A stretch of DNA of 64,000 nucleotides from NCBI GenBank assembly GCA_039794365.1, contig JBDIVN010000009.1:70833-134832 (forward strand). The letters run 5' to 3'. Under the pieces are notes generated by a model that had not been told where the DNA came from, ran no database searches, and saw nothing but the letters and a program-made list of their open reading frames with translations. Source of the DNA: Vampirovibrionales bacterium (lineage in GTDB: Bacteria > Cyanobacteriota > Vampirovibrionia > Vampirovibrionales > Vampirovibrionaceae). The first letter of the stretch is position 1; each line of letters starts with the position of its first letter. Below are positions 11,465 through 37,579 of the stretch, one piece after another. The position numbers and the translations under genes are program-made.

Positions 11465-11658
11465 AAAGACATTTTACAAAAGTTCAGGATTCTTCTTGGT
11501 TGAAATCCGGCTTGTCGCCAACCGGACGCTTCAGGCAATCCATTGGATAGACGCCGGATTTATTAACTCTTTCTTAACCCTGTCACAAGGAATCCGGCGG
11601 TTGTTTTCATGCAAACGGAGAGTGGGTAGTGTAAGCGTTTAGAAGGAACGTGTGGGAT

Positions 11659-13125
11659 ATGACAGTGGGAAGAATTCCTCAGGGCCAGCAGGCCCTGGGT
11701 GGCAGTGCAGGTATGGAGAGAGTGGGCGGACCGAAGGCGGGTCCGGAAGTGGCGACAAACAGAGAGGCGCCGCGACCGCAGACCGAAATCCGCCCAGGCG
11801 AGCGCGGCAGCGATATTCCCCAGTTCACGCCGAATTTCATGGCGATGGGGCAGCGGCAGGAGCCGGCACTCGCCCGGAACACGGACGCGATGGCAGAGGC
11901 CGGGAATGCTGCGGGTCAGAACCCGTTCCGGCTTGCTTCCGATACCGGTGGTCCCCAGGGAGCCGCTCCGGATGACGGCAAGCCGTCGGGCGACTCAGCC
12001 GGCGAATCGGCTGACGAGTCGTCCGGGGACAAGGCCGGTTCGTCGGCGGACGGCACGAAGCCGGAAGGAGAAAAGTCGAAGGACCCGGCGAAGGATTATG
12101 AAAACGGCAGCCGCAAAACCGGTGAAAACCTGGACAAAACCCTGGAAAAACTGGACGGGCAAGGTAAGAAGGCAACTGACGAACAGACGAAGCAAAAGAT
12201 TGAGGAACAGAAAAAACGGGCGGAAGAGCTTAAGAAGCAACTCGATGAACTCAACGGCAATGACAGGTTGAAGCCCGGCGAGAAGCTTGAGAAGCTGAAC
12301 CGGCTCAACCAGGAACTGTCCGAATTGCAGCAGCAGGTGGATAACCTGGGTCGCTCGTTACCGGAACAGGAAAACCCGGACTCGCCCGAATCACCGGGTG
12401 AGCCGGGCGCTCCTCCGGAAAATGGCAGCCAGCCGGACGGTGGCAATCTGGATAATGGCGGCGGCAGCCCGCCGGAAGGTGGAACACCTCCCGAAGGTGG
12501 AAACGAAGGCGGTTCTCCGCCGGGTCTTGACGGCGAAAACGGCGGTGCTCCTCCGGGCGGTGGAGAACCGCCGGGTGGTGGCGGTGCGCCCCCAGGCGGC
12601 GAGGCTCCTCCGGGTGGTGGTGCCCCTCCGGGCGGTGGCGGCGCTCCTCCGGGCGGCGGTGGGGAGGACCCCTTCAACAACGCCCCGCCGGGCAACGAGG
12701 AAAACCTGGACAGGCCGAACAGTCCCGACGGCGGGCAGCTTGACCCGAAATTCGTGGAAAAGGTCAATGGCGCCGATCTGGATGAGTTGCGCCGGATGAA
12801 ACAGGACCTCCAGAACCAGCTGGAGGACAAGAAGCGCAAGTTTGACGATCCGGATACGCCCAATGACGAGAAGCGCAAGATCGGCAACGAAATGCTGGAG
12901 TTGGGCAAACAGATGGAAAAGATTGACGAGGCCATCAAGGAGAAGGAGGCGGAAAAACCGGAGGACAAGAAGTCCGAAGACAAGAAGGATGAAAAGAAAC
13001 CGGAAGACCCGGCGAACAAGGACAAGCCGGGCAGCGACGGCGATGCCGGCAAAGTGAAGGAAACGGCGAAGCCGACTGCGGGAGAGAGCGGAAACGGGAT
13101 ACAGGCTCCCAGGCGCATCGCCTGA
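11659..13125 (+). CDS. Low-complexity hypothetical protein with coiled coils and (GGAPP)n repeats
   Basis: Two charged helical segments flanking GGAPPGGG repeats; AAGGA RBS; coding-like codon usage. Confidence 0.75.
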   Translation: MTVGRIPQGQQALGGSAGMERVGGPKAGPEVATNREAPRPQTEIRPGERGSDIPQFTPNFMAMGQRQEPALARNTDAMAEAGNAAGQNPFRLASDTGGPQGAAPDDGKPSGDSAGESADESSGDKAGSSADGTKPEGEKSKDPAKDYENGSRKTGENLDKTLEKLDGQGKKATDEQTKQKIEEQKKRAEELKKQLDELNGNDRLKPGEKLEKLNRLNQELSELQQQVDNLGRSLPEQENPDSPESPGEPGAPPENGSQPDGGNLDNGGGSPPEGGTPPEGGNEGGSPPGLDGENGGAPPGGGEPPGGGGAPPGGEAPPGGGAPPGGGGAPPGGGGEDPFNNAPPGNEENLDRPNSPDGGQLDPKFVEKVNGADLDELRRMKQDLQNQLEDKKRKFDDPDTPNDEKRKIGNEMLELGKQMEKIDEAIKEKEAEKPEDKKSEDKKDEKKPEDPANKDKPGSDGDAGKVKETAKPTAGESGNGIQAPRRIA

Positions 13126-13235
13126 TTGAAGCTTGTGTTTCCGGACTGAGCATAAGGATCATTCCCTTCGGGAAATGACGGGGCGCAATGCCCTGGGATT
13201 GGTAGCGAAAAACCCTCACAGAAGGAAGACCCTCT

Positions 13236-14672
13236 ATGAGCAATATGCGTGTGGGAAGCGGACAGCAACGGCAGACCGCTTGGCAGCAGCCCCAAAGGCA
13301 GGCTTCCGGGCAGTCACATGCCAATTCACGCCCCATTGGGCGGCAAACTGGCGGAACCGGTGGACAGCAGCCGACGTCGCCGGGTCAGGGCCGGGGCTAT
13401 TCACCGATGTCCGGTGTCCGGCAGGCCCCGTTTCAGCCGACGGATTTCCGGACGGATTTTGCCCGGCTGGCCGGTCTGGAGGTGGACTCCTATCCCTATC
13501 AGCCGGAGGACCGACGGGAGGCAGACCGGGCACCGGCAGGGCCGAGCCGGTCACTACCGCAGGCGGACGACGGCGGTGGCCGCAATAATCAGACAGGCGG
13601 GACAGGGCAGACAGTCCGGGCCACCCGGCACGATCAGCCGGGTGAGGGCGGCAGGTCCGGCAATGGCATGGAGGCGGCCCGGTCAACACAGACCCGTCGG
13701 ACCGGAGAGCAGGAGCCTTCCGGGAAAGAGCGCTCGACGGCATCCGATGATGCGAAATCTCCGGAAAAACCGGAGGGCAGGTCTTCTGAAGGCAAGTCCT
13801 CCAAGGACACGCGGGAGACGGATGACACTCCCAAAAGCGGCAGGGGCTGGATGGAGAAGATCCGCAACGCCAACCTGCCCAAGACGGGCAAGGAATGGGT
13901 CAACTACGTCAAGGACAAACTGAAGGGGCTACTCAGCTCGATTCGAAACGGCATTGCCGGTCCCTTCAGAAACCAGATGGACCGTAACAACGGCTGGGCA
14001 TCCAACGTGATTTTTTCCGGGGCGTCCAACAGCCAGCACACGGTGGGCTGGATGAACCCTCATGGCAAGACGGCGATGGGCTACGCCCTCTCCAGATCCC
14101 TGCGGGATTCGCCCTCGCTGGTGGATGCCATGAACAAGTTCTCCGGACGGCCCTATCCGGGTTTTCCGCGTAATGCCATCGCCAAGTACTGGCATGCGGA
14201 CAAGGTTGGCGGGGATGGCTATTTCCAAAGCCCGCTGCGGTTTTCGAAAAACACCCAGAGCGGCCCGAACCCCACGAAAAACGTCTTCGTCGGTGTTTCG
14301 GGCGGTCCGGAAGGCGCCTTTTCCCGGAGCATCCAGGATATCGGCAAGGTGATGAAGGAGGAGTTCAACACCACCAACTTCATCTACCACCGGGGGACTG
14401 CGCGGGCGGACCAGCAGATTGCAAGCGCGTTCGGCAAGATTCGGGAGTACGCCCTGAAAAACCCCGATCAGCCGGTGTCCGTGGCATTCATGCTGGATAC
14501 CCACGGCGGCACCTCCGGCGGCAACCGGGCCGAAGGCTCCGGTCACGGGTTTACCGGACAGGTGGACGAGCGAACCCTGAAAAACCTGGTGAATCGCTAC
14601 CTGGGCGGGCTGGACAACGTGGGGGTCCATATGATCGTCAGCGCCTGCCATTCGGGAGCGTATCTCATGTAA
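13236..14672 (+). CDS. Disordered N-terminus plus C-terminal caspase-hemoglobinase-fold (clan CD) peptidase-like domain
   Basis: FMLDTHGG (His-Gly) and MIVSACHSG (Cys) motifs in the expected order after hydrophobic strands. Confidence 0.65.
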   Translation: MSNMRVGSGQQRQTAWQQPQRQASGQSHANSRPIGRQTGGTGGQQPTSPGQGRGYSPMSGVRQAPFQPTDFRTDFARLAGLEVDSYPYQPEDRREADRAPAGPSRSLPQADDGGGRNNQTGGTGQTVRATRHDQPGEGGRSGNGMEAARSTQTRRTGEQEPSGKERSTASDDAKSPEKPEGRSSEGKSSKDTRETDDTPKSGRGWMEKIRNANLPKTGKEWVNYVKDKLKGLLSSIRNGIAGPFRNQMDRNNGWASNVIFSGASNSQHTVGWMNPHGKTAMGYALSRSLRDSPSLVDAMNKFSGRPYPGFPRNAIAKYWHADKVGGDGYFQSPLRFSKNTQSGPNPTKNVFVGVSGGPEGAFSRSIQDIGKVMKEEFNTTNFIYHRGTARADQQIASAFGKIREYALKNPDQPVSVAFMLDTHGGTSGGNRAEGSGHGFTGQVDERTLKNLVNRYLGGLDNVGVHMIVSACHSGAYLM

Positions 14673-14851
14673 ACGGAATATTCATTCAAAAGCGGCTGGA
14701 AGGAGCCCCGGAGAACAAAGCCTGGCTGAGGGCAGTCGGTAGCCCCAAGCCAGGTTTTCCGGCGCCTGAAAATTTCTGTTCCCTTTTGCGGTTTCCAATG
14801 TCATAATCCGGGTATTGCGGGTCATACGGGAAATACAGGGATTTTACATGC

Positions 14852-15147
14852 ATGCCGACGGTGTTGCTTCTGATCATTTCCAAAAGTACAAGACGTCGCC
14901 GTTGTGGATCGTCATCCTGGCCAGTTGGGGCATCGCCTTTTTCAAGTACTGTTTCCAGGTGCCCGCCAACCGGATGGGGCATGGCGTCTTTACCACCGCC
15001 CAGCTCAAGACCATGCAGGAAGTGATCACCCTGGCGGTGTTCTGAGGCTTCTCCGTCCTTTACCTGAGGGAACCCCTGAAATGGAATGACCTGGTGGGTT
15101 TCGCATTTCTCATCGGCACCGTCTTCTTCGTTTTTAAAAAATGGTGA
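14852..15147 (+). pseudogene. DMT/DUF486-family membrane protein pseudogene
   Basis: MPTVLLLIIS, then frameshift into KYKTSPLWIVILASWGIAFF...QVPANRMG...QLKTMQEVITL; in-frame TGA at 15043-15045; continues GFSVLYLREPLKWN..FKKW-stop. Confidence 0.75.
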
Positions 15148-20036: not shown

Positions 20037-23000
20037 TCAGGGGGTCAGCCGCGTTCCCACCTGCAACGGCTTTGCCGTGGTCTTCTGGCTCAGGGATTCG
20101 ATATTGAACCGCAGGGGAATGTTGTTGCCGCTGATGGTGTTCTGGACGCTGAAATTGGTGCTGTCAAAGATGGTGATGCTGGTTTCGGACATATCGGCGA
20201 CGTACACCTTCTCGCCGTCGCGGCTGACGGAAATGCCGTAGGGGGTCGGTCCGACCGCCACCGTCCGGCTTACACTGCCGGTGTCCGTATCGATGATGGT
20301 CATGGTGCCGTCAAAAGTGTTCAGGACGTAAAGGGCCTTGCCGTTGGGATTGACGGCGAGCGCCTGCGGGTTGTTTCCGACCGTGATTTCCCCGCTGATC
20401 CTGCCGGTTCCGGCATCGATAACGGCAATGGTGTTGCTGCCTGAGTTGGCGACGTAGATCGTCCGGCCATCCGGGCTGATGTCAATGCCCGAAGGCTGGC
20501 TCAGGTTGCCTTCAATAGTCCGAACCACCCGGTTGTTCCGGGTGTCAATGACGGAGATGCTGTTGGCCGCACTGTTGGCAACATACAGGTTTTCACCGTC
20601 CGGGCTGAGGGCGAGACCTTCGGGATGCTCCCCAACGGGGATGTCGGTCATCACTTCGAGGTTGGAAGTGCTGATGACGGAAACGGTGTTGCTGCCGGAA
20701 TTGGCGACGTAGGCGGTTTTCATGGCCCGGTTCACGATAATGGCGTTGGGGTTGCTGCCGACCGGAATGATCTTGATAATCTGGTCGCCGAGAGGAACGA
20801 TGACGTAGACCTTGTCCGTTGAGGCGTTGGCCACGTAGTCCAGCTGGCCGAGGTCCTTGTCCTCGTATGTGAAGGAGCCGCTGCCAAAAGCCACGGTCGC
20901 GTTGAGCATGTCCTCGGTCCTTACCGGCGAGGCGGTCCCTGAACCGTCATCCGAAGCGGTCGAATCGGTGCTGATAACCACCGTTACCGGCTGGGTCAGC
21001 AGCGACGGATCGAGGGAGGCGATGGCGTCCACGACCTGCAGCGAGGGGCCGGGATCGAAAGTTGTGCCGCCGCTGCTGCTGGAAGACGGTGGTGGCGGGG
21101 CAAAGGTCGTGCCTCCGTTGAAGATGACCAGTCCCGGTGGTCCGCCGACGACGCTCAGGTCGTTGGTGGGCATGACGGTGCCGTCAATATTCACGGAAAC
21201 GCCGTTGACGGCGCCGCCCGCGCTGACAAACAGGTCGCCGCCCACGATGTTGACATCCAGCGGATCAGTATCGGTGCCGATGGTGCCCGATGCGGTGAGA
21301 TAGGAGTCGGCTCCGGCGGTGAAGTTGTTGGCCGCGCCGTTGCCGTCGAGAATGCTGCCGTTTTCGGCGCTGAGTTCAAACCCGGCGGTGCCCACGTCGA
21401 ACGTGCCGACGTAACCGCCGTCCGTCAGGTTGATGTAGGCGGCGGCGTTGTTGGTTTTCACGCTGATCATGCCCGTGCCGCCGATCTGCACGTCAAGATC
21501 GCCGAGGCCGGGGTTGCCAATCTGTCCCGTTCCCAGGCCGCCAGCCCCATCAAACGTGATGTCGCGGTTGTTGGCCAGGATGATGTTCGGTATGGAATCG
21601 TCGGTGGGGTCGGCATCGGTGATGGTGCCCGCCGTGCGCAGGTGAAGCGAGGCGTCCACGGCGGTGAGATCGATGGCGTCAATGCTCATGTCCCCGGTGG
21701 TGGCGTTGTTGCCGATGGTCAGGTTGCCGGCGGAAAGGTTGTTGAGTTCGGCGTTGGTCAGGCTCAGCAGCCCCGCGCCGCCGCCCAGGCCGATGGAGCG
21801 GCTGGCGGTGGATGCGGCCAGGGTGACATCACCGTTGCCCGCATCAATCGTCCCGCCGGAGAGATCCATATTGTCGGCGATGACGCTGACCGTGCCGTTG
21901 ATGGAGATAAGATTGCCGCCCGCCATGAGGTTCACGGCCCCGTTGCCCGGCGTGGTGAGGGTCACGGCGGTGGCGCCGTTGACGCTGCCGCCGTTGATGT
22001 TGATGGTGCCGTTGACGCCGGTGGTGTTCAGATTTACCGTGTTGCCGGTGACAGCCCCGGTGACGTCGATATCGCCGCCCGCCGTCAGGTCGTAGGCCAT
22101 CACGGCGCTGTTGCCGGCGCCCAGCGTCACGCCGTTGAGTTCGTCGATATAGACGTTATTGCCGCTGATGTCCAGGGTGGCGGCATCCGTGTCGAACCGG
22201 TTCCCGGCGGAGCCGATATCCGTGGCCGCCGTGACGGTCACGAGGCCGCCGCCCACCCGTCCGGCGTTCTGGGTGACTGTTCCCGCGCCGGTGGCCTCCA
22301 GGGTGACGGAGGTAGCGCCGGTGACGTTGCCGTTCAGGGTCAGGCTGCCGTTGGCGGCGGTGGTGTCCAGGCTGATGACGTCGCCGCTGATATCGCCGGT
22401 GGTGGTAAAGCTGCCGTTGGCAACGACATCCAGGATGCCGCCGTTCATATCCGACGCGCCGATGGCAATGTCATCCGTCTCGTTGATGTAGGCATCGCCG
22501 CCGTTGGCGTTGGCCGTCAGGTTGACGGTGTTGGTGTTGAACCGCTGGATTCCGGTTCCCGCGAAACCGGTGCCGAGGTTGAAGTTCAAATCCGTGGCGT
22601 TGACGATGTTGGCCGCTCCCTGGTGGATGTTGGCGCCGTTGCCGGTGGCCGAGAGGTTCACCGTGTTGCCGGTGACGTTGCCGTTCAGGTTGATGTGGCT
22701 GCCATCCGTCAGGGTGGACACGTCAACCTGGTCGCCCGCCGAGATGTCGGCATTGACGAAGATTTCGGCGTTGGCGCCCATCGTGCCGATGTCAAGATCA
22801 CCGGTTCCGTTGGTGACGTTGATGTCGCCGTTGAGGGTAATGGTGCTGCCCGTGCCCGTGGTGTTGATGATGGCCAGGCTGGTCGCCGTGTGGGTTCCGC
22901 CGCCTGCCGTGATGGTTGAATTGTCGCCGCTGGTGGTCATGTCGAACCGGTTGGCGCTGATGTCGCCGCTCATCGTGATGTCGGAATCATCCCGGTTGGT

Positions 23001-26000
23001 TCTCAGCCAGGTGTTGCCGGTGGTGGTGACATTGCCGGTGACAGAGACGGCGCTGTTGACCTGCTGGGTTTCGACGCTCAGCGTGGCGGCGGAAACATTA
23101 CCGGTCAGAGAGATAGCCGAATCCGCCTGCAGGGTTTCGATATCCAGCGTGTTGGCAATGGTATAGCCGCCGCCGGCGTCCTGCATCGTGATGCCGCTGT
23201 TCGTGCCCGCGGTGTTGAATATGGCGTTGGCGGCGGTGATGTCGCCGGTCTGGGAGATGCCGCTGTCCGTCGCGCCCGTGGTGGTCATGGACAAATCGCC
23301 GGTAAGGGTGATGTCGCCGTTGGTGGTGAGGGTGGACGTGTCGCCCAGGGCGGCCAGCGAAGCGTCCGCGGCGTCAATCGTGCCGTTCTGGTTAATGCTG
23401 CCGAGATTGGCGATGATGTCGATGTTGCCGCCCGCGCTCAGGTTGCCCAGTTCGAGGTCGGTCAGGGTATCCGTCAGGGTGAAATCGCCATTCATCGTGG
23501 TGGCGTTGATAAGGGAAGCGTTGAAGACGCCGGAGAGGTTGACCTGGTCGTCCACGTTGAAAATAATGTTGGAGCCTGTCAGATTGGCACCCGTGCCGAC
23601 GACGTCGAACATGTTGGTTGTGTTGATGCTGATGATGCCGGTGCCGCCTGCGCCGGTGCCGGCCTGCTCATCCAGGGTGCCGTTGTTTCCGGGGCCGGAG
23701 GCGTCGTTGACGATGCGGATCACGCCCCCGCCTTCGGCCATGATGGTAACGTCGGTCAGATCCAGATCGCTGGCATCATAGTTGATGGTGACGGACCCGT
23801 TATCGCCGCCCGCGGCGCGAACCGTTCCGGCGCTGGCAAAATCCCCGTCGATCAGGACCAGTCCGCCGCCACCGGCGTTGATGGTATCACCGGGATTGAT
23901 GGCGGGGTCAGGGGTGCCGCCGTTGTCGTCAAAGGTCAGGTTCTGCCCCACACCCGTTCCGGTCGCCTCGACAAGCGTTCCCGCACGGGAGATGGTGATG
24001 CTGTTGGCGGTGAGGCTGATGTTTTGGGCCTGATGGGTCCGGTTGGCCAGCAGGTCCAGCACGATGTCGCTGTTGGCGGCGGTTGCGTCCAGGTTGCCGC
24101 CAGCCGTCACGTTGCCGCCGTACATGTTGATATTGCTGTTGGCTCCGGTGGTGCTGAAGGTGATGTCATTGGCATTGGTCGCCCCGTTGATGGTGATGGC
24201 GCCGAAGGTGGCACCGGTGGTGGCGATGTTGAGATCCCCGGTCAGGTTGGCGCCGCTGATGGCAATGCTGCTCAGGTCATTGGTTGCGTCAAGGGTTGCG
24301 TTGACGCCACTGAGAACGCCCGTGGTGACATCGCCGTTCACGCCTGTGGTGTCGATGTCAATATCGTTGGTGGCGGTAATGGCGCCTGTGGAGATCCGGC
24401 TTTCATCGCCGGTGGTGGTCATGATGGCGTTGTCGGCGGCGATGGTTCCGCCGAGGAGCATGTCACTGTCGAAGCCGGTGGTGCTGGCGGTGAAGTTGTC
24501 GGTGGCGGTGATGTTTCCGGCGACGTTCATGGTGCCCAGGTTTGCGGCATTGGTGGTCAGGTTGATGACGTTGCCGCTCATGCCGCCGTTGGAGAAATTG
24601 ATGGTGCCGCCATTGAGGGTGATGTTGTTGGCGCCCGCCGTGATAACGTCTCCGGCCACGGTGGAGGTGATGGCACCGGCATTTCGCAGGTCAAGGTGGT
24701 AATCGAAGCCGCCGGCGGAAGTATCCATGGCGTTGACGATTTCCAGATCCCCGCCCATCGCGGTATCGCCGATAACCAGCGTATTCGCCGTGATGCGATC
24801 CAGTTCCACGTTCTCGATATCCAACACCAGGGCGGAATCGTTGTCGCCGACATTGTTCAGATCAATTTTCTTGGCTGTGGTGGCGGTGATGGTGACGGTG
24901 CCCGCCCCGGCATTGACCGTGCTTCCCGGCTCCAGATCGAACTGGGAGACGTTGAACATGATGTTGCCGCCGTTGGAATTTATGGCCGAGTTCTCCTGCA
25001 TGGAGAACCGGCCCGTGTTGTTGGCGTCCGTGTCGGCAAAAATGCCGATATCGCCGCCCGCCGTTGAATAGGTGGAACCCGCGCCGCCGTCCTGGCCGAG
25101 GAAGATGTTGTTCTGCGCCCGCAGGGTGATGCCGTTGGCGCCGCTCATGGCCATGCCGTCGTTGTCGAGATTGATGCTGCCGTTGCCCCCGTTGGCTTCG
25201 ATCCAGAGGGTGTCTCCCGCCGTAATGGCTGCCAGTCCGGCCTCGTCAGTAATGTCACCACCCGCCAGCAGTTGCAGCACGCCTCCTGCCGAAACGGTGG
25301 TTACGAGGTTCACGCCGTCAATGTCTGTGACATAGGCGTCCAGCCCGGCGTTGACTTGCAGGTTGTTTGCGTCGATGGTCACCGGCAGCGGAGCCGAACC
25401 AATGTTTGACTGAGTAGCGATGAGATTCAGCGTATCGGCAGTAATCAGGCCGCTGTTGTGGATAATGTCACTGTCCAGCCCGGCGGTGGTGATGGAGGCA
25501 CCCTGCCGGCTCTCTGACTGGTGAAATTGCCGGCGTAGGTGATGCTGCTCTGGTTGCCTGCCGTGGAAATAGTGGGGGAGTCCACGTTGGTGGTGATGTC
25601 TGCGGTGATGGAGATGTCGCTGTCAATGCCCGCCGTGGAGATGGTAAAGCCTTCACCGCCGCCGTCCACGCCGCCGCCGCGATCCACCTGGTCACCCATG
25701 GTATAGGGATTCACACTGCTGATGGTGATGTTGCTGCCGTCACCCGCCGTGGTAATTTCCGTGGCGTCCGTATAGGCGATGTTGCCGTCGGTGATTGTAA
25801 TGTTGGCATTGTTTCCGTTCGTGACCAGGCGCAGATCATCGCCCGCGGTAATGGTTGCCCCATTGAGATCGATGTCACTGTCCGCATTGTTCGTGATTGC
25901 GCGGATATCCCTGCTGGCAGTGACGGTGCCCGTAATGGAAATGTCGTTGTCAACGCCACTGGTAGTAAAAAAGACATTCGCACTTCCCGAACTCGCTGAA

Positions 26001-29000
26001 CCGCTCAGGGTGATACTGCCATCCAGGGCGGTAATATCCACCTGACCGGTTATCGCCGTCAGGGAACCGCCGATGGAGATATTCCCGTCGACCGTATCAA
26101 TGTCCATGGAGGTGCCAAACGCGTTGGATGTCAGGTTGCCGTCAAGGGTAATATCGCTGGTGGCGCCACCGGTACTGATGGTGATGTTGTCCGTAATGTT
26201 GGCGCTGGACGTGTTGGTGAAGGTAATACCGCTGTTGGCTCCGGTGGTTGATACGGTGAGATCGGCGTCGTTGATGTTCAGGTCGCCGGTAATGGTGATG
26301 GGGCTGTCGTTTTGTGCGGTGGAGAGGGTGCCGGTGCCGTTGAGGGAGTTGGCGGTGATGCTGTCCACGGTGATGCCGCTGAAGGTTCCGGCGGTAGAAA
26401 TGTTCAGGGTAGACCCGTTGGCGGTGATGGTTCCGGCGCTGTGGGTAATGGCGCTGTCGGTCAGCCCGGCGGTGGTGATGGTGACATTTTGCCCGGCCTT
26501 TTGGCTGGTGAAATTGCCGGCGTAGGTGATGCTGCTCTGGTTGCCTGCCGTGGAAATAGTGGGGGAATTGATGTTGGTGGTGATGTCGGCGGTGATGGAA
26601 ATGTCGCTGTCCGCGCCCGCCGTGGAAATGGTAAAGCCTTCACCGCCGCCGTCCACGCCGCCGCCGCGATCCACCTGGTCGCCGAAAATCAGCGGATTGG
26701 CGGTACTGATGGTAATATTGCTGCCCAACCCGTCCGTTGTGATGAGAATGGCATCGGTGACGGTGATGGCCGAGCCGGTAATGCTGATGCCGGCATTATC
26801 GCCGAAGGTTCGCAGTCTCAGATCATCGCCCAGGGTCACATCCGCCGTGGCGGTAAAGATGATGTCGCTGTTGTTGCCGTTGGTGGTCAGGCTCAGATCG
26901 CGGTCTGAAACAACCGTTCCCGTGACGGTGATGTCGTTGTCAATTCCGTTGGTAGTGAAGAACAGGTTTCCGAGGTCGGGGTTGGTTACCGTGCCCGTAA
27001 TATCGATGCGGCCGTCCTGGGTTTCAAACTGCGTGAAGTTTGCACTGCTGCCCGTGAAGTTTCCATCCACGAAGATATGACTGTTCGGGCCGTCGGTGCT
27101 GGTCAGCGAGAGGGCCGTAATACCGCTGGCCGTGTAATCCGAGGTATTGGCAAAGGTAATGTCGCTGTCGGCGCCTGCTGTATTGATTGCGTAGTTTCGG
27201 CCCACATCAACCCTACCGGCAAGCGTAATCCCGCTATTATCACCGGTTGTCGTCAAACTCAGGTCACGGGCGGGAGCAATATCGCTGCCCGCCGCCAGGG
27301 TAATGCCGCTGTTCAGGCCGGTGGTTGAGACGGTGAAATCCTGATCCCCAATATTAACCGTGCCGGTAATGGTGATAGCGCTGTTATCCTGTCCGGTGGA
27401 GAGGGTACCGGTCCCGTTGAGGGAACTGGCGGTGATACTGTCCACGGTGATGCCGCTGAAGGTTCCGGCGGTAGAAATGTTCAAGGTGGCTCCGTTGACG
27501 CTGATGGTTCCGGCGCTGTGGGTAATGGCGCTGTCGGTCAGCCCGGCGGTGGTGATGGTGACATTTTGCCCGGCTTTCTGGCTGGTGAAATTGCCGGCGT
27601 AGGTGATGCTGCTCTGGTTGCCCGTCGTGGAGATGGTGGGGGAATTGATGTTGGTGGTGATGTCGGCGGTGATGGAGATGTCGCTGTCTACGCCCGCCGT
27701 GGAAATGGTAAAGCCTTCACCGCCGCCGTCCACGCCGCCGCCGCGATCCACCTGGTCGCCGAAAATCAGCGGATTGGCGGTACTGATGGTAATATTGCTG
27801 CCCAACCCGTCCGTTGTGATGAGAATGGCATCGGTGACGGTGATGGCTGAGTCGGTAATGCTGATGCCGGCATTATCGCCGAAGGTTCGCAGTCTCAGAT
27901 CATCGCCCAGGGTCACGTCTGCTGCGGCGGTAAAGATGATATCGCTGTCGTTAGCGTTGGTGGTCAGGTTCAGATCGCGGGCGGAGAAGACTGTCCCATT
28001 GATGGTGATGTCATTATCCACCCCGTTGGTGGTCATCAGCATGTTGCCGCCGGGAGCGTCGGTTCGAACGGTGCCGTTGACGGTGATGTTTCCATCCTGG
28101 GTGGTGAGATCCATTGCCGTGCCGAAACGATCCGCCTGAAGGAATCCGTCGATGATTATGTTGCTGCCTGCGCCGCTGGTGTCCCAGTCCACCAGGTTGT
28201 CGATGTGGGCAAACGCCCCGGCATTGAAGAGGATGCTGCTGTTATCTCCGGCGGTATTGACCACGAAGCTGCTGGGAGTGCTGACGGTGCCCGTAAAGGT
28301 AATATTGCTGTTATCGGCAACCGTGGTGATGGGATTCAGCGTGGTGCCCACGGTCAGGTCGTCGAGGGTGATGCCGTTGTTGGTTCCGGCGCCGGTGGTC
28401 TGGACCGTCAGGATATCAGCGGTGATGGTGGTGCCGTCCGCCTGGCTGATAAAGCTGTCGTTAAGGCCATTGGTAATAATGGAAGCCGTTCCGGTGACGG
28501 TCAGATCTCCCAGGATATCGATACTACCCCCGGCCAGCAGATCGAATCCGCCGCCGGAGACGGAGGCGGCGAGATCCACGTCGTTGAGTTCGATGATATT
28601 GACGTCACCCGTCCCCGTGTTGGTGACGGTGAGCACCCCGGCGTCCGTCTGGATGGGGTTGGCGACGGTACCCATGTTGCCGGAGAGATCCGTGGTCAGG
28701 TTCACCGTCGGTCCGGTGATCCGTCCGGACTGCCAGGTGATTTCCCCTTCGCGCATGGCGGTCAGGTCAATAATGCCACCGGTGGAGGTGATATTGGCGT
28801 TGAGGTCAATGGACTCCCAATCGGCGGGGTTGATGGTTCCATCGGCATCCGCGTTGGAAAGCAGGGTAATATTGCCGGTGGTGGAAGAAATATCCCCGTT
28901 CACCTTGATCCAGGCCAGGGAATTCAGGGTGATGTCTCCGGCGCCGCCGACGATGCTGCCGGTATCGTCAATCCAGGTCATATTCACGGTCATGGTCTTG

Positions 29001-32000
29001 TCGCCGAGGGTGAGGGTTTGTCCGGCAGCATCAAAACGACCACTGTTGCCGAAGTCCAGGTTGTAGGCTCCGGCCCCGGCGCCGGAAACGTCCAGGTTCC
29101 CGATGATGTCGATATCTCCCCCACCCCGGATCAGGAGGGTATCGGCGGTAATCCGGGCGAGTTCCTGCGAGGAGATGTCGAGAATGCCTGCCGTATCGGC
29201 GTTGTCAACGGCGCCGCCAATCTGTGTCGTTTTGTTGCTGGCGCGGCGCAGCGTCACATTGCCTGTCCCGGCGTTAACGGACTGGTTGATATCCATCTGG
29301 GAGCCTTCCAGGTGGATGTTGCCCCCATTGGATGTCAGCACGTTGTTGATGACGAGGTTGCCGGCATTACTGCCATTATTGTCGGCAATCAGAGTCATGT
29401 TGGGACCATTTGTCGTAATCGTGCCGTTCGTGGTGAAGTTACCGTCGGTGGCCATGCTGATGCCACCGGGGCCGCTGGTGTTGATGGTCGTGTTGGTGTG
29501 GTTGATCTCGATATAGTTTGTGGCGGTCCAGTCGATGGCTCCGGCGTCGATGTCGGCAAATTCGGTAGTCGTGTAGCCAATCTGGATATAGTCGGTCATA
29601 TTGGCCGTAAACGTTCCGCCGCCTAAATTGATGGTGCTGAATGAGTTGCCGCCACCGTTGCCGTCAATGTGGATAGCGTCCCCTGTGGCGGTCCAGCTGC
29701 CGCCGTTGGTAAGGATGCTGGACCCTGCGCCGGTGTCAAACCGTCCGGTCCCGCTGCTGTTGGTATCGGTGACGGAGGTTATTGCGCCGCCGTTGGTATT
29801 GATGGCGCCGTTCATGAAGATGTTGTTGCCGGACATGAACAGGGCACCGCCCCCGGTGTTGACTGTTCCAGTCGAACCGATGGTGAGGTTGCCGTTGCCG
29901 TCGTCGTTGAAATCACCGTCCAGGGTCAGGGTGGCGTTGTTGAGGCTGATGCTGCCGCCAATGACGGCATGACGCCTTGCGTTCAGTGTGGTTCCGTTGC
30001 TGTTGGTGATGCTCCCCGTGCTGGACATAATGATTTCATCGGAGAAATCCGCCTGAATCAGTCCGGCGTTCTGGATAGTTCCGTTGAGAAACAGGTCATC
30101 ACCGCTCATGGTGATGTTGCCACCGCCAGTATCCACAATGCTTCCGTTTGCGATGGTTACATCCGAGACGCCGCTGATTTCGCGGGAGTTCAGGGTGAGT
30201 GAGCCTCCTGAGGTGGTAATGGTGCCGCTGTTGATATTGAGATATTCGCCCTCGATCAGGAGGCTGCCGCCGCCGGTTGCGATGGAGGCGTTAATACCGA
30301 CATCGCCGCTGGCATCCAGGTCTCCGTCGGCATTCAGGATGAGGTTCCGGCCTGCGGTATCCAGCGAGCCGTTGATAAGGATGTTGTTCGCCGACTCCAG
30401 TTTCAGATCATAAACGCCGTTAAGGGTCAGATTCTCGTTGACCGAAACATCGCCCACAGCCCAGTAGGCTCCGATGATCACATCGCCCGCATTCAGCCGG
30501 TCCAGTTCCGCCTTGGAAATATCCATGACCCCCGGTCCATCGGCATTATCCACCGACCCTCCTACCGTGATGTCGTTTCCCCATCCTGTCAGCCAGATGC
30601 TCCTTGCCGGACCGACATCAATTGTGTTGTTAATGTCAATAGCGAGGGAATCAAGATAGACATTGGCGTTGCTGGTGATGGCGCCGTCGATGGTGACGGA
30701 GATGTCGCTGGCCAGATCGAACCATCCGCCGATGTTGGGACCGATGGTAAAGTCCTCGTTGACCGTAATGGCTCCGCTTCCGCCAACGTTGACCGCTCCG
30801 ATGTTGACGGATACGTTCGCCCCGCTGTTAATGCGGTTGATTTCCGCCTGGGAGATGTCGAGCACGGCGGCGGAATCGGCATTATCGACAGAACCGCCGA
30901 CATGGATGTCCTTGCTGGCGAAGGAGCCAATGTAAAGCCACGTCTGCACGCCCGGATCGCCGATATCCACGGTGGCGTTGATGTCGATCTGGGAACCCAT
31001 GAGCTGGATTTCGCCACCGTTGGAAGACACGGTATCGTTGATGGTGAGGGTGCCGCTGTTGTTACCGTCGGCGTCGGCCCAGAGGCGGATGGCGGCGTTG
31101 TTGGTGGTGAGCGGGGCGTTGATGGTGATGTCGTTGTTGGCCTCAAGGGTCAGGGAGACGTTGGCGTTGCCGGTGGCAACGGAGGTATCGAAGGCGCTGT
31201 TGACGATGATGTCGTTCGTGGCCTGGAGCCAGATGTCGCCGAAGCCGTCAAACGAGCCGCCGGCTTGCGGGTCATAAGTCTCCAGGGCACCGCCGTCGGC
31301 AAAGGCAACGTCCACGCAGCCCACACAGTCAGCAGGGTCCGGTGAGCCTCCGGCGTTGTCGATGATGATATCCACCGGGTCAATGAGGATGCGTCCTCTC
31401 TCGTAGCCTTCGGTCGCATGGCCCCGTGCCTGTCCTTGAAAATACACGGTTTCCAGGCCGCTCACCTCGACGAAGCCTGCATTACCCGAAACGGAGCCGC
31501 CGCTGACGTCAATCACCGCGCCGTTGCGGAAGTAGGTGTTCTTGTCGGACCAGATCAGCATCTCGCCCGCATTGCTGTTTTCGCCCGCGCCTTTGACGGA
31601 GGTGTAGCTGTCGCTGGTGAGCGCGGTCCCCTGGGTGGAACTCAGTTCCACGTAGCCGCCGGTGCCGCCCTCGTAGCCTTCGGAGAGAATGTTTCCCGAC
31701 TGGATGAGCCAGTCGGCGTGGAGGGAGACCAGTCCGCCGTCCGGATTGAGTTCTGAACCGCTGGCGTCCAGCGTCCCGCTGTTTTCGACGATGGCCTGCT
31801 GATCGGCGGAATGGCCGCGAAGGCGGATGACGCCGCCTTCCTCCGTGGCGGTGACGGCGCGGATGACGCCGTCGTTGTTGACCACGCGGCTGTAGAGGTT
31901 CTCGGCCAGCTCGGTCTGCAGCTCGATGGTTTTGGATTCAATGGTGCCGCTGTTGGAGATGGCGTGCTGAACCTCGTCCACCTTGGCCAGCAGGGCCTCG

Positions 32001-32782
32001 TCGATGATAACCTCGACAGCCTGGGTGTCCGAGACATTGACCCGGATCTTGTCTCCGGCGGCCAGGTGCACCGTGCCGTCCGGCACGAAGATGTTGCCGC
32101 TGTTCTCCACGGCGGAACCGGCCAGCACCACGTAGCCGCCGGGCATCGCCGAGATGCTCCCCTCGTTGATGACGGCGGCGGGGTTGTCGCCGTTGCGGCT
32201 GAAGGCCCAGTTGCCGCTCAGGTAGTCCTGGTCGGCGATGTTAAGGCTGGAGGCGATGAAACTCCCCGTGTTGATATTGGCGGTGGCGCCGATGTTGATT
32301 CCGGCGTTGTTGGACAGCAGGACCGTTCCGTTGCTGTTGAGGTTCCCCATGATGCTGGAGGGTCCGCCGCCGATGACGCGGTTCAGGATGCTGGCGGTGC
32401 TGTTGAGCAGGAAGAAGTTGACCGTTTCTCCCCCGGCGATGTTGAAGGACTGGTAGTTGACGATGGCCTGGCTGGAACTGGAGTGGACGTTCAGCGTACT
32501 GCCGTCCACCTGGAACGTGACATCCCCCGACACGACCTCCCATCCAGCTGGCAACGCGAGGGCCTGCTGGACCAGCATCAGCAGCACCAGAACGAAGGCC
32601 AGCGCCGACTGCGCTCCCTGCCGGATGACCGTGCGGGCGTTCAGATTACTGAACAGGGCTGACAGATTCGGGAGGAAGTCATCCTCGTGGGTGGTGAACA
32701 GCCGAAATTTGCCGCCGGATAAGGTAAAAATCCGGTGGCAGTTTTTCCTGCCACGAATAATCAAGCTGTCTTGTCTGTCCAT
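20037..32782 (-). CDS. Giant filamentous-haemagglutinin-like (TpsA-type) adhesin with C-terminal YVTN beta-propeller, split by a 1-nt frameshift at about 25506 (4,248 aa if restored)
   Basis: Extended signal peptide ending ..QALA; haemagglutination-activity domain (ILNRVIGG, GNLNSNGTVLLSNNAG); G/T/N/D/I-rich beta-helix repeats; YVAN repeats; one added G joins ORFs 25445..32782 and 20037..25382. Confidence 0.88.
25490..27920 (-). repeat. Three large internal repeats in the adhesin gene
   Basis: GATCCACCTGGTC anchor at 27745, 26668 and 25681 (spacing 1077 and 987 nt); first two copies nearly identical over about 500 nt. Confidence 0.9.
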
Positions 32783-33647: not shown

Positions 33648-36600
33648 ATGGAGGCTGCGAAGGCTTGTAACCAGCATAATGAGAATCAGGCGACCGTGTT
33701 GACCCACCAGGATATTTTCAGACAAATCCGTGATCAGTTGCCGCGTGTGCGGGAGCAGGATATTCCGGTGACCCTGGAAACGCTCCCGGCGGTGAAACGC
33801 GAGGGCAATGGCGCCGTCGCCACGAAAACCGTCCGAAAGGACTCTGCGCTGGCTGTGGATGTCCGGCTTCTGGGGGCCATGCTGGGCCGGGTCATCTATG
33901 ATCACAAGGGCGAGGCCTTTTTCCGGTTTATCGAGAACCTGAGGTTCACCGCGAAACGCACCCGTGAAAAGGACGGCTCCGTCAACCGGCAGGCGTTCGG
34001 GGCCATCGTCCGTGAATCCCTGGACCATCTGTCCCCTGAGGAGCGTATCCAGTGGCTGGATGACGCCGCCGTTGCCTTCCAGCTTTTCCTGACCCTGACC
34101 GGCATTGCCGAAGGCTACCATCAAAGCCTGCAGTTCATCCAGGACGAGAAGGGGGTCTATTCCGCCGTGCGGGAACTCCAGGCGGGAGGGGAACCTCTGG
34201 ATGACCTGACCGAGGTAATCAACCGGATGCAGGTGCGGCTGGTGGCCACGGCCCACCCGACAAAAATTCTGCGGCACATCATTCTGCGGCATCATCGGGG
34301 GATTTTCCACCTGTTGAGCCAGCTTCACCGTTGCGGGCTGTCCGAGGCATCCCAGCAGGAAATTCTCGATGAGCTGATGGAGAAGATCGAAATGCTGTGG
34401 GCGTCCGAATTCAGCCGTTGGCAGACCCCCACCGTCATCGACGAGGCCCGCCACGTTCTCAGCTATTTTCGTCATACCCTTTACCATACGGTGGTCCGGC
34501 TGGACAGTCGCCTGCACCGTTCGCTGCAGTCGGGTTACGGCGAATGCCCGCTGTCGCGCATCTCTGAAAAACCCCTGATTACCTTCGGAAGCTGGGTTGG
34601 CAGCGACATGGACGGGAACCCGAACGTCAATGCCGACTCGTTCAGCGAGATCCTGGGCCTGCAATTCCAGACCATCCTGCAACTCTATGCCGATGAGCTG
34701 GTGGAAATGGCGCCCAAGATTACCCATTCCGTCTATCGCTTCGAGCCGAGCGATGTGTTAAAAGCTTCTCTAACCCAGGATCTTGACGAAATGGTGGAGG
34801 CCGGTCTGCCTCTCAGGGACTTCAGGGCCGGAAGCCGGAGGGAACCCATCCGCGTCAAGCTTCTGCTGATGGCTGAGCGGCTTCAGCACACCCTTGCCTA
34901 TCCGCCTCTGACCCATGTAACGCCGGAACCGCTGTTTGTCTACCATAGCCCGAAAGAGCTTCTGGCGGATGTGCAGCTCATGATCGATTCCCTGACCGGT
35001 GCGGGGTACGAGCGTTCCGTTCACCTGTGGCTGGAAACCTTTGCCCGGAAAGTCCGGATCTTCGGCTTCCACCTGGCGGCGATGGACCTGCGCGAGGATG
35101 CCGAAAACATCAGCGCCGCCGCGGACATTATCCTGGCCGTTTCCCATGGCCGGGATGAGGACATGGACGAGGCGGATTCGGTATCCGCCCTGACGGCGGC
35201 CATCCTGTCGCCCACCGTCGTCCAGCCGAGAAAGCTGGATTTCATGAAAGACAAGGCCCTGAAGCTCTTTGGAGAGCAGAAAGGCTGGTGTACCCAGCGT
35301 CTGCTCGATATGTTGATGGTGGTGCGCCAGGCCCACGAATTTCTGGGTCCGGAGTCCTCGAAAAACCTGATTATTTCCATGACCTCCTCCCTGCAGGACA
35401 TGCTTTCCGCCCTGCTGCTGCTGAAAACGCGGGGTCTGTTTTTCCAGGACGTGGATGAGGCCTGCGTCAGCGACATGGACATTGTGCCCCTGTTCGAGAC
35501 CATCGATGCGCTGGACCGGGCGGCGGCCATCATGGACGAGGCGTTTTCCAACGAAGCCTACCGTCTTCACCTGCAATGCCGTGGCAATCAGCAGCTTATT
35601 CTGCTGGGATACAGTGACAGCAATAAAGACGGCGGCTATTTCACCAGCAACTGGTTGCTGTACAAGTGCCAGCAGGAGCTGATGGCCGTGGGTGAAAAGC
35701 ATGGCGTCGCCGTCCGGTTCTTTCATGGCCGGGGCGGTAACATTGGCCGTGGGGGTGCGCCCACCCACCGGGCGGTACAGGCCCTGCCACCGGGTAGTGC
35801 CCGGTTCGGGCAGGATCTTACCGAGCAAGGCGAGGTCCTTTCGCGCTATTACAACATTGCGGAAATCGCCCAGGCTCACCTGGAAAACATCTATTCCGCC
35901 CTCCTCAAGAAGAACGTCTGCCCGGAGACCCCGGCACGGGACGCCTGGGTTGAGGCGGCGGAATGGCTGTCCGCCCATTCGTTCCGGAAATATCGGGCCT
36001 TCATTGAGCATGAGCATTTTATCGAATACTTTGAGAACGTGACGCCCCACGAGGTGGAGTTGGTAAAAATCGGCTCGCGTCCCTCCAAGCGGCGGCAGGC
36101 GTCGTCGATTCGGGATCTGCGGGCCATTCCGTGGGTTTTCCGCTGGTTCCAATCCCGGCAGATTGTTCCCGGCTGGTACGGTATGGGTACGGCGCTGGAG
36201 CGTTTTCTGGATGAGAACCCTGGCAACGAGGCGCTGCTTAAGGACATGTTCGGGCGCTGGCCGTTTTTCGGCAGCCTCATCAACAACTGCGAAATTACCC
36301 TCTCCCAGACGGATCTCGGCATCGCCCGCCATTATATGGGGCTGGCGGAGGACCAGGCGTCTGCCTCGGCCATTCTGGCGGATATTGAGGCTGAGTTTGA
36401 CCTGACCGTACGGATGGTCCGGAAAATCACCGGCGCTCCCCTGCTCAGCAAGCCGGAAGACGAACCGCTGGCCCATTCTATTTTCCTTAAATCCCCGTAT
36501 CTCGACCCCCTGAACTTCATTCAGCTCTACCTGCTGGAAGATTACCGGGATCTGTTGGAACGCGAGCGCACCGCCGACGAGCAGATCACCCTGGAAAACT

Positions 36601-36662
36601 ACCAGCGTGCCATCGTCTCCAGCATTGAGGGCATCGCCATTGGCCTGGGTACATCGGGTTAA
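33648..36662 (+). CDS. ppc: Phosphoenolpyruvate carboxylase
   Basis: TAHPT, GYSDSNKDGG, FHGRGGNIGRGG, TEQGE, LRAIPWVF; start uncertain. Confidence 0.93.
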   Translation: MEAAKACNQHNENQATVLTHQDIFRQIRDQLPRVREQDIPVTLETLPAVKREGNGAVATKTVRKDSALAVDVRLLGAMLGRVIYDHKGEAFFRFIENLRFTAKRTREKDGSVNRQAFGAIVRESLDHLSPEERIQWLDDAAVAFQLFLTLTGIAEGYHQSLQFIQDEKGVYSAVRELQAGGEPLDDLTEVINRMQVRLVATAHPTKILRHIILRHHRGIFHLLSQLHRCGLSEASQQEILDELMEKIEMLWASEFSRWQTPTVIDEARHVLSYFRHTLYHTVVRLDSRLHRSLQSGYGECPLSRISEKPLITFGSWVGSDMDGNPNVNADSFSEILGLQFQTILQLYADELVEMAPKITHSVYRFEPSDVLKASLTQDLDEMVEAGLPLRDFRAGSRREPIRVKLLLMAERLQHTLAYPPLTHVTPEPLFVYHSPKELLADVQLMIDSLTGAGYERSVHLWLETFARKVRIFGFHLAAMDLREDAENISAAADIILAVSHGRDEDMDEADSVSALTAAILSPTVVQPRKLDFMKDKALKLFGEQKGWCTQRLLDMLMVVRQAHEFLGPESSKNLIISMTSSLQDMLSALLLLKTRGLFFQDVDEACVSDMDIVPLFETIDALDRAAAIMDEAFSNEAYRLHLQCRGNQQLILLGYSDSNKDGGYFTSNWLLYKCQQELMAVGEKHGVAVRFFHGRGGNIGRGGAPTHRAVQALPPGSARFGQDLTEQGEVLSRYYNIAEIAQAHLENIYSALLKKNVCPETPARDAWVEAAEWLSAHSFRKYRAFIEHEHFIEYFENVTPHEVELVKIGSRPSKRRQASSIRDLRAIPWVFRWFQSRQIVPGWYGMGTALERFLDENPGNEALLKDMFGRWPFFGSLINNCEITLSQTDLGIARHYMGLAEDQASASAILADIEAEFDLTVRMVRKITGAPLLSKPEDEPLAHSIFLKSPYLDPLNFIQLYLLEDYRDLLERERTADEQITLENYQRAIVSSIEGIAIGLGTSG

Positions 36663-36664
36663 CG

Positions 36665-37579
36665 TTATTTCCGTGGGGTCTTCTGTTGTGGCTGGGGCTG
36701 TTGGTTGGCTTGCTGCCATGCAAGGTTGAGCAGGGCCGAGAGGGTTTCCTGCGCCCTGGTCATCCGGGACAGCAAGATAGGTCGGAACGCCGTTCGCAGG
36801 GCCGTGCTGCAGGCATAGGGATTGGCGGCTGCCCAGGGATTGGCAAGGCATGTCTGCTGGGCCTGCACGATATCGTACACGGCCAGGTGGCTTTCCAGAA
36901 CCTGCCGTTTCAGGAACGGCTCCAGGGTTTCGGCGGTCAATTCGGGCAGAGGGCTTGTCTTTGGAGGGTTTGCCAGTTGTGCCAGGTCGTTGGGCGTAAG
37001 CACGGCCTGTTCCAGGAAGGCATGGATGCCGGATTGGGGAAATGCGGGATGAATGGGCCAGTCATGATAAGTCGTGCTGTGCAGGGGCATGAACAGATCG
37101 CCCACATAGTGGGAGAGCCGTCCGATGGCATCGCTGAGGGCCAGTTGGAGCGTTTCTTTCTGGCCTGCGTCCTGGGTTTCGATGACCTGCCGCATCAGGC
37201 GCCGGGTATCGCGATAGGCCGTCAGAGTGGCGGTGACGACTGTTTCTCCCTGGGGAAGAGCAGGGCCGTTGCCCGGCGGGTTCTGCCACAGGCCGGCCAG
37301 CCACTGCCGGGCGTTGGGGTTGAAGTGCCGGAAAATGAAGTCCAGGGGCAGGGGGCCGTTGCCGGAAAATCGGTTGACCGGAAGCTCAAGGTTGATGAAG
37401 TGGTGCGGGCCTTTGTGATAGATGTCCTGGCTGTCGTCGGAGGCGGCGATGAACGGGCGGCTTTCCTGTAGAAACGGTTTCAGGGGCGTCTGGGGCAGGC
37501 GGTTGAAGGCGCCTTCGCGAATGGCGCCATGTCCGCGGCTGTCCCAGCCGAATCTCGGAGTGGTGTCGGAAATGCCCAA
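36665..37579 (-). CDS. S1/P1 nuclease / Zn-dependent phospholipase C fold protein with short non-Sec leader
   Basis: W-D-S-R-G-H start motif, D..HHFIN, HYVGDLFMPLH, IHAFLE; probable TTG start at 37579 behind CAGGGG (ORF is open to GTG 37705). Confidence 0.8.
   Translation of the reverse strand: MGISDTTPRFGWDSRGHGAIREGAFNRLPQTPLKPFLQESRPFIAASDDSQDIYHKGPHHFINLELPVNRFSGNGPLPLDFIFRHFNPNARQWLAGLWQNPPGNGPALPQGETVVTATLTAYRDTRRLMRQVIETQDAGQKETLQLALSDAIGRLSHYVGDLFMPLHSTTYHDWPIHPAFPQSGIHAFLEQAVLTPNDLAQLANPPKTSPLPELTAETLEPFLKRQVLESHLAVYDIVQAQQTCLANPWAAANPYACSTALRTAFRPILLSRMTRAQETLSALLNLAWQQANQQPQPQQKTPRK

Follow-up and report, generated by a model that had tools for sequence, protein, structure and literature searches.

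Proteases of the caspase fold are usually restrained by the need for a cut between their large (p20) and small (p10) subunits. In caspases and type II metacaspases, the loop past the catalytic Cys must be cut so that the active-site loops can rearrange, and this restraint is removed when engineers swap the order of the subunits. The engineered permuted caspase-2 (cpCasp2), which consists of the small subunit (residues 334-452), a GS linker and the large subunit (170-333), is a constitutively active single chain (PMC7760212). Engineered permutants are active uncut because their chain termini already lie at the cleavage site. The natural order of p10 before p20 is known only in type III metacaspases of heterokonts, haptophytes, cryptophytes and euglenids (PMC3734836, PMC8455989). 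Two surveys, the second of which comprised 11,208 prokaryotic homologues, detected no type III forms in prokaryotes (PMC3734836, PMC6426788), and a literature search for a bacterial permuted clan CD protease gave none; the matches were engineered cpCasp2, algal type III metacaspases and unrelated permutations. Here we report on a gene located at 13236..14672 on the plus strand of a 64,000-nucleotide (nt) stretch of the contig JBDIVN010000009.1, hereafter the window. According to structure predictions, its product is probably a single-chain caspase-fold (clan CD, C14-like) cysteine endopeptidase whose halves are circularly permuted, with a p10-like unit preceding a p20-like unit.

The gene starts with ATG, is preceded at a distance of 7 nt by a Shine-Dalgarno-like GAAGGAAG (13221..13228, +) read from the sequence, and ends with TAA at 14670-14672. 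It encodes a protein of 478 amino acids (aa), as delimited by the list of open reading frames (ORFs), the sequence and the homologue P0002. The motif FMLDTHGG, from aa 418, contains the predicted catalytic His423 (codon 14502..14504, +), and IVSACHSG, from aa 464, contains the predicted catalytic Cys471 (14646..14648, +). Seven residues (HSGAYLM) follow Cys471 before the stop codon, and no open frame continues beyond it. An earlier note on this DNA had placed both motifs and the stop in this way and had described the N-terminus as disordered and rich in Q, G, R and S; all of this was confirmed, the disordered part amounting by its composition to ~200 residues. Sequence comparison indicates that 13236..14672 is a real gene since its closest homologue, P0002, is 63-68% identical in the domain and the ratio of non-synonymous to synonymous substitution rates (dN/dS) differs along the chain. 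When the window was compared with the contig carrying P0002 (L001), the folded part showed a dN/dS of 0.18 and 68% amino acid identity, whereas the N-terminal extension showed values of ~0.6 and 29%.

A word-indexed search with the window protein returned P0002 as a single homologue (63% identity over the C-terminal 314 residues), and no more were gained when the family profile was used in its place. A phmmer search with residues 201-478 against 1.84 billion representative proteins yielded no more than ten proteins at an expectation value (E) below 1e-3. None of the ten carried a Pfam domain, and no canonical C14 family or metacaspase appeared at this level among the proteins searched. The resulting family alignment contains 11 sequences, of which P0011 is the most divergent (23% identity). 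The members are known only from metagenomic bacterial contigs. Scanning GTDB representative genomes, JGI metagenome contigs and the viral contigs of IMG/VR with family patterns gave no relative, and a family hidden Markov model (HMM) run against the six-frame translation of the window gave no second copy.

Both putative active-site motifs are conserved throughout the family. The HG dipeptide, within the motif [TSG]-H-G-[GN], is present in 10/10 members covering this region, and the Cys motif [ACQS]-C-[HY]-[AS]-G in 9/9. The chain ends exactly 7 residues past the Cys in seven of the nine complete members and 10 and 12 residues past it in the other two. The earlier note had asked whether homologues also end after the Cys; since most of them end alike, and the members' stop codons are well away from the contig ends, a short C-terminus is characteristic of the family. 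A truncation of the window copy was rejected, as genuine stop codons terminate its relatives at the corresponding position.

An AlphaFold2 model of aa 201-478 based on the 11-sequence alignment reached a mean predicted local distance difference test (pLDDT) score of 83 and a predicted template modelling score of 0.82. The p10-like segment (aa 251-345, 13986..14270, +; pLDDT 79-95), which is also delimited by Foldseek, conservation and a weak HHalign match, is predicted to contain a strand at aa 258-263 (NVIFSG/NVIFSGA), an L3-like loop SNSQHTVGWM (ASNSQHTVGWMNPHGK), two helices (aa 280-290 and 295-300) and a strand at aa 317-324 (YWHADKVG). This corresponds to the element order of caspase p10 (b5, specificity loop, a4, a5, b6). 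A linker of ~22 residues containing the invariant Ser332 joins it to the p20-like catalytic segment (aa 348-478, 14277..14669, +), which is delimited by AlphaFold2, HHalign and sub-threshold Pfam matches. The latter segment is predicted to follow the canonical caspase p20 order: b1-a1-b2-a2-b3-His-small hairpin-a3-b4-Cys-short helix-end. His423 comes after the strand at aa 414-421 and Cys471 after the strand at aa 462-469 in the models. The arrangement typical of the clan CD fold, a core strand followed by His and the next strand followed by Cys, is thus present in the predicted structures, and hydrophobic blocks precede both motifs (VSVAFMLDT-HG and VHMIVSA-C).

The Foldseek search of the PDB with this model gave three matches below E 1e-3, and all of them were chains of JF1cpCasp2 (9c2y_C, 9c2y_B and 8vp4_A), with E values of 1.9e-7 to 1.7e-6, probability 1.0, 242-264 aligned columns and template modelling (TM) scores of 0.52-0.57 normalised to the ~240-residue target. 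The large-subunit chains of ordinary caspase-2, -4 and -11 were aligned over 133-150 columns at E 0.03-0.13. Similar results were obtained with the model of P0011, in which the domain has a pLDDT of ~70-97 and the N-terminus is disordered. Here too cpCasp2 took the first two places (E 9e-6 and 3e-5, 263-274 columns), ahead of Arabidopsis metacaspase-9 (probability 0.99, 163 columns) and caspase-1 p20 (~160-180 columns). Non-caspase alpha/beta proteins appeared only at E>0.02 in both searches. Since Foldseek alignments are sequential, the full-length match to a permuted caspase together with half-length matches to natural caspases indicates the order p10-then-p20.

Kinship to metacaspases was also detected by profile comparison, which is independent of the structural models. 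For this purpose 120 metacaspases were gathered, all of type I, and 112 of their p20 segments entered the HHalign profile. The reference sequences of Yca1 and human caspase-3 matched PDB 4f6o and 7xn4 exactly, and MCA1 of C. glabrata and MCA2 of T. brucei served as additional metacaspase references. The C-terminal half of the family aligned with the metacaspase p20 profile over 130 columns (probability 91.9%, E 7.2e-7); swap controls gave E 0.11-0.32. In this register KNVFVGVSG falls on b1, T-H-G-G on S-G-H-G and S-A-C-H-S-G on D-S-C-H-S-G, so that His423 (DTHGG) aligns with the metacaspase His in SGHG and Cys471 (SACHSG) with the Cys of D-x-C-H-S-G. When the whole domain was used, a permuted p10+p20 reference was aligned over 184 columns (score 51.5) and a native-order reference over 130 columns (score 46.0). 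Comparison with the single sequence of caspase-3 was not significant for either half. Moreover, three relatives matched the Pfam family Peptidase_C14 (PF00656) with 17.3-18.8 bits at profile positions ~27-129 of 233, a region corresponding to the p20 part up to the Cys. The gathering threshold of this family is 21.4 bits; it was reached by none of the 11 members, and the window protein itself gave no match at E<=10. On the basis of the HHalign comparison with metacaspase p20, the catalytic half is, judged from its sequence, a distant relative of C14 p20 domains.

These results agree with the caspase-fold His/Cys domain proposed in the earlier note, for which Foldseek (probability 1.0), HHalign (92%) and the three sub-threshold Peptidase_C14 matches speak. 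They do not agree with its description of this domain as p20-only behind an unknown middle domain. The whole domain matches the engineered p10-then-p20 permuted caspase-2 over its full length, and the supposed middle domain (aa ~251-345) is predicted with a pLDDT of 79-95 to be a p10-type strand, two helices and a strand. If this holds, no p10 would be missing, and none would have to be supplied by a recruited partner.

By eye, the N-terminal half bears some likeness to p10. The family sequence FSGASNSQHTVG resembles the metacaspase p10 start LSGSKDNQTSAD, and NVIFSGASNSQHTVGW resembles the p10 starts VVMLSGSKDNQTSADA and VMMISGCADEQTSADV. Similarly, S-G-A-S-N-S-Q-H-T-V-G resembles S-G-C-x-D-x-Q-T-S-A-D, but has N or G at the Asp site and A or S at the Cys site. 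The residues which form the substrate pockets of the known enzymes are not retained. The position -2 from the Cys, Asp in metacaspases, is occupied by S, E or N, and the column at the Asp of Yca1 C-I-N-D contains D, S, K, Q, K, A, G, E, R or K across members. The caspase motifs Q-A-C-x-G and S-W-R are absent, and the p10-like loop reads G-W-M, G-Y-M or G-W-F in the by-eye alignment with caspase-3. Since the pocket residues of both caspases and metacaspases are replaced, the substrate specificity is probably neither for Asp, as in caspases, nor for Arg/Lys, as in metacaspases.

Several points weigh against a permuted protease. The evidence for it is wholly computational, and both AlphaFold2 models share one shallow alignment of 11 sequences. 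The strand order was read from the secondary structure and from the sequential Foldseek alignments, in which the TM scores are moderate (0.5-0.57) and the root-mean-square deviations are 5-7 Å. When the window protein was compared with Pfam, NCBIfam, PADLOC and the PDB, by sequence or by profile, nothing reached threshold. The HHalign comparison of the N-terminal half with metacaspase p10 gave an E value of 0.0055 and a probability of 6.6% and covered two helices only; the swap controls were weaker (E 0.11 and 0.32). The assignment of the N-terminal half as p10 is thus a prediction drawn mainly from the modelled structure, the sequence being insufficient by itself. Finally, the acidic protein encoded upstream of the gene, which is discussed below as a possible regulator, is absent at the loci of P0003, P0007 and P0011.

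One alternative follows the earlier note: a p20-only caspase-like domain behind a middle domain of unrelated nature, which would have to form dimers or take up a p10-like partner such as the product of 11650..13125. By sequence, the likeness to caspases and metacaspases is significant only in the p20 half, and the E value of 0.0055 for the p10-like half is not. Most bacterial caspase homologues, the orthocaspases, have been described as p10-less (PMC5756287, PMC6426788), and the upstream neighbour is conserved in the closest relative. However, the two models match permuted caspase-2 over ~250-270 columns, about double the length aligned with p20-only chains, and the elements of the middle region follow the order of p10 at high pLDDT. 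The putative partner is a low-complexity coiled-coil protein without a strand-helix core and is missing in three members. We rejected the p20-only explanation on this fold evidence from Foldseek and consider it highly unlikely. A further objection is that the caspase fold is absent altogether and that the domain is of a generic (Rossmann-like) alpha/beta type with three layers, in which the HG and C motifs arose by chance, over-read by AlphaFold from a shallow alignment. The models do depend on 11 sequences, no curated family threshold was reached, and many weak Foldseek matches (E 0.02-0.5) were to PatB, Psy3-Csm2, sugar-binding and AAA+ proteins. Against this, the cpCasp2 matches lie 3-5 orders of magnitude above any non-caspase match in both searches, and the permuted caspase-2 structures, released in 2025, presumably postdate the AlphaFold2 training data, so that the topology would not have been copied from them. 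The structure-independent HHalign match to metacaspase p20 (92%, E 7e-7) aligns the catalytic residues, three members match Peptidase_C14 independently and in the same register, and a hydrophobic strand precedes both the HG and the [AC]-C motif, as is characteristic of clan CD. The absence of a caspase fold is likewise highly unlikely.

Granting the fold, the protein might still be an inert scaffold which binds partners without cleaving them. About 9% of bacterial orthocaspases are pseudo-enzymes (PMC6426788), and the family does not retain the pocket residues of either caspases or metacaspases. The known pseudo-orthocaspases have, however, lost His and Cys (typically to Tyr and Ser), whereas the present family keeps both residues in conserved motifs in every member across 23-67% identity, and its domain is under purifying selection. 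A pseudo-protease thus appears unlikely. We regard as similarly improbable that the permuted protease is secreted or injected as an effector against a eukaryotic (e.g. algal) host or prey, with the disordered N-terminus acting as an export signal. The organism is probably related to Vampirovibrionia, which includes an algal predator; the N-termini are long, polar, disordered and without a Sec signal, as in many injected effectors; and the window also encodes a giant two-partner-secretion exoprotein. But no secretion-system genes lie beside the gene, whose neighbours are housekeeping ones (NhaA, MscS, MsrB, DUF4168) on a contig whose his and trp operons look complete. Eukaryote-like domains are lacking, the family is absent from phage and defence libraries, other members adjoin genes for a phosphopantetheinyl transferase and a DEAD-box helicase, and the taxonomic placement depends on a single marker, HisD, at 53-60% identity. 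The action on eukaryotic cell-death machinery suggested in the earlier note gained no support: neither a signal for secretion nor a eukaryote-like domain nor any context of host association came to light. A role in the cytoplasm, as a regulatory or stress protease, is just as likely as secretion.

If the protein is a permuted protease as preferred here, its chain would comprise a disordered extension of ~200 residues, the p10-like unit, the linker of ~22 residues and the p20-like unit with His423 and Cys471. The C-terminus, 7 residues past the Cys, would coincide with the site of the inter-subunit cut in caspases and type II metacaspases. With its C-terminus at the cleavage point and the p10-like unit joined to the p20-like unit through the former termini, the protein would be expected to fold directly into a processed-like state. 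We infer that the enzyme would be catalytically active without inter-subunit cleavage, its active-site loops being free from the outset like those of the engineered permutants. Control would then have to come from elsewhere, and would most likely be exerted by the disordered N-terminal extension, which may emerge beside the active-site loops and may need to be removed or displaced. A precedent is the metacaspase GtMC2, which is activated by the Ca-dependent removal of its N-terminal domain (PMC5756287). In the sub-lineage of the window, the acidic coiled-coil protein encoded upstream may add a further level of control.

The extension (aa 1-204, 13236..13847, +), defined by composition and dN/dS, is rich in G, R, S, Q, T and P and poorly conserved. 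Residues G, R, S, Q, T, P and A account for 71% of the first ~200 positions, with very few hydrophobic ones, and the matching N-terminus of P0011 has a pLDDT below 50 in its model. A long low-complexity extension is common to every family member. The proteins P0005 (267 aa) and P0006 (195 aa) seem to be shorter, but their frames are open upstream, which indicates that the short forms are due to mis-called starts; the upstream frame of P0006 holds the conserved motif SNVLFVASSNQQDRVGWM. Between the extension and the core, aa 204-250 (13845..13985, +) are predicted by AlphaFold2 (pLDDT 43-68) and the alignment to form two low-confidence helices and a short strand entering the core, and KTGKEWVNYVK within these helices is conserved in some members. 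The disordered N-termini of P0003, P0007 and P0011 (loci L002, L084 and L085) contain 4-6 copies of V-A-N-A-R-[YF] spaced ~15-25 residues apart. This motif is missing from the window protein, and the six-frame translation of the window gave one chance-like match to it. The extension of P0004 carries a dense Arg-Gly tract (GRGRYGGRGLRGGRGFGGRGRRRRGGGGG) which is RGG-box-like; RG/GR dipeptides are sparser in the window protein. This Arg-Gly tract is a hint that some family extensions could bind nucleic acids or drive condensation.

Downstream of the stop codon (~50 nt), a GC-rich hairpin with a stem at ~14720-14755 is followed by UUUU (14720..14758, +), and may represent a weak intrinsic terminator. 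The fold of the RNA 14665-14790 has a free energy of -47.3 kcal/mol (z -2.9). A consensus terminator scan did not list this hairpin because it is too poor in U, having only four. To call it terminator-like, as was done before, is thus fair but weak: the hairpin with its UUUU stands, the consensus scan does not endorse it.

The gene is surrounded by ordinary chromosomal genes (M16 peptidase, NhaA, MscS, two DUF4168, MsrB and M90 peptidase), and complete-looking his and trp operons are found further along the contig. The best relatives of HisD among GTDB species representatives are from metagenome-assembled genomes (MAGs) of Melainabacteria, Obscuribacterales and Vampirovibrionales (47-60% identity), together with two probably mis-binned MAGs; Clostridia come next at <=47%. 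Judged from this single marker, the source is probably a lineage of the Vampirovibrionia type, hence of non-photosynthetic cyanobacteria. Scans of the window for tRNAs and RNA families yielded nothing informative. Immediately upstream and co-oriented lies the acidic neighbour (11650..13125, +; start codon uncertain), a Gly/Pro/Glu-rich low-complexity coiled-coil protein of 491 aa with a net charge of -31. Its counterpart precedes P0002 in L001 and is 43% identical over the C-terminal coiled coil of 90 aa (E 1e-16). It matched no Pfam family at threshold, and its weak NCBIfam/Pfam matches to TraB, SMC-like and FlxA proteins were dismissed as coiled-coil noise. A similarly built protein is encoded upstream of P0008. 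Homology between the two was not established (BLASTP E 7): the z values of 4-6 from full-length shuffling are artificially raised by clusters of low complexity, and those for just the C-terminal motif were 0.8-1.8. The genes of P0003, P0007 and P0011 are each located directly upstream of a phosphopantetheinyl-transferase (ACPS) gene. None of the neighbourhoods examined pointed to secretion, defence or a eukaryotic host, and neither the window protein nor its neighbours nor three relatives matched PADLOC. Immediately downstream of P0008, an integrase, a helix-turn-helix protein and a Prim-Pol/DUF5906 primase are encoded (9396..14004 of L086); this looks like an integrated mobile element bordering the P0008 gene.

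Further features were recorded in the window. The gene downstream of the hairpin (14848..15147, +) encodes a DMT_6/DUF486 membrane protein (Pfam E 1e-34, profile positions 21-104) and is broken by an in-frame TGA at 15043..15045 (gtg ttc TGA ggc ttc); the gene could be a pseudogene, or the TGA could be an error of sequencing or a stop that is recoded or read through. The ORF 25445..32782 (-) of 2,445 aa carries an N-terminal two-partner secretion (TPS) domain and is thus suggestive of an exoprotein similar to filamentous haemagglutinin. A TpsB transporter was not identified, and the adjacent 693-aa ORF 34770..36851 has no Pfam match. The 1,781-aa ORF 20037..25382 (-) ends in an NHL/YNCE-type beta-propeller. 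Inside it, on the opposite strand, ARAGORN called a 101-nt tRNA-Gly(GCC) at 21948..22048 (+), which is probably a false positive because there is no Rfam tRNA match at threshold at this place. In the his operon, 42512..43750 (+) combines His_biosynth (HisF-like), PRA-CH and PRA-PH (HisI, HisE) in one ORF, an apparent HisF-HisIE fusion.

If our assignment of the gene product is true, the permuted architecture exists in bacteria too, in a family which current profile libraries fail to detect. Structural and biotechnological work would then have a compact (~275 aa) natural enzyme, single-chain and caspase-like, to set beside cpCasp2. The family would offer a data point on the regulation of clan CD enzymes without inter-subunit cleavage, possibly via the extension and an acidic partner, as well as a test case for the independent origin of the algal permutation. 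It would also be a caution that bacterial caspase homologues described as p10-less may hide divergent p10 units elsewhere in the chain.

Among bacterial proteins, the family can be compared with the orthocaspases (e.g. MaOC1 of Microcystis), which are likewise bacterial, cyanobacteria-associated and C14-like and have the His/Cys dyad. In contrast to the window family, orthocaspases are defined as p10-less and usually have extra domains C-terminal to p20 (PMC5756287). In the window family, a p10-like unit is predicted N-terminal to p20 and the chain does not extend beyond the Cys region, although the family would be p10-less by sequence-only criteria. The closest sequence relatives of the catalytic half are the type I metacaspases (Yca1, PDB 4f6o; TbMCA2, PDB 4afr; and bacterial forms). 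These have p20 followed by p10 with the long 280-loop region between them, an acidic S1 pocket and Ca2+ sites, none of which is conserved in the window family. The engineered permuted or reverse caspases (cpCasp2, PDB 9c2y and 8vp4; rev-caspase-3 and -6) share the order of the small and then the large subunit. If the catalytic Cys of cpCasp2 is numbered C320, this chain likewise ends a few residues past its Cys, ~13 compared with 7 in the window protein. The single-chain cpCasp2 is active without inter-subunit cleavage (PMC7760212). Unlike the window family, such proteins were built artificially from human caspases, are specific for Asp (QACxG, Arg pocket) and dimerise; they are 10-14% identical to it, with no evolutionary link.

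The type III metacaspases (MEROPS C14B; GtMC2 of Guillardia theta, PtMCA-IIIc of Phaeodactylum), which belong to algae with secondary plastids, have p10 N-terminal to p20, as predicted for the window family, and have in common with it the His/Cys dyad and a Cys motif of the C-H-S-G type. The activation of GtMC2 by N-terminal removal corresponds to the regulation proposed here. However, type III metacaspases are eukaryotic, detectable with C14 p20/p10 profiles, Ca2+-dependent and cleave after Arg, whereas the window family is bacterial, lies below the Pfam C14 thresholds and has neither the S1 Asp of metacaspases (D-x-C) nor the Asp in p10 that is associated with the binding of Ca2+. By the criteria of Klemencic et al. 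2019 it fails detection with C14 p20/p10 HMMs, the two groups being compared here by description only. The family would have escaped the surveys because it is below the profile thresholds that these surveys used. It is highly unlikely that it shares its origin with, or is the source of, the algal type III p10-before-p20 permutation, in which case the rearrangement would be prokaryotic. A milder reading is that a 'reverse caspase' which needs no cleavage and has a new specificity was invented independently for a second time. In comparison with the known systems, the window gene and its relatives are thus predicted to represent a bacterial, highly divergent, circularly permuted caspase-fold family, displaying a natural permutation which was previously known only from algae.

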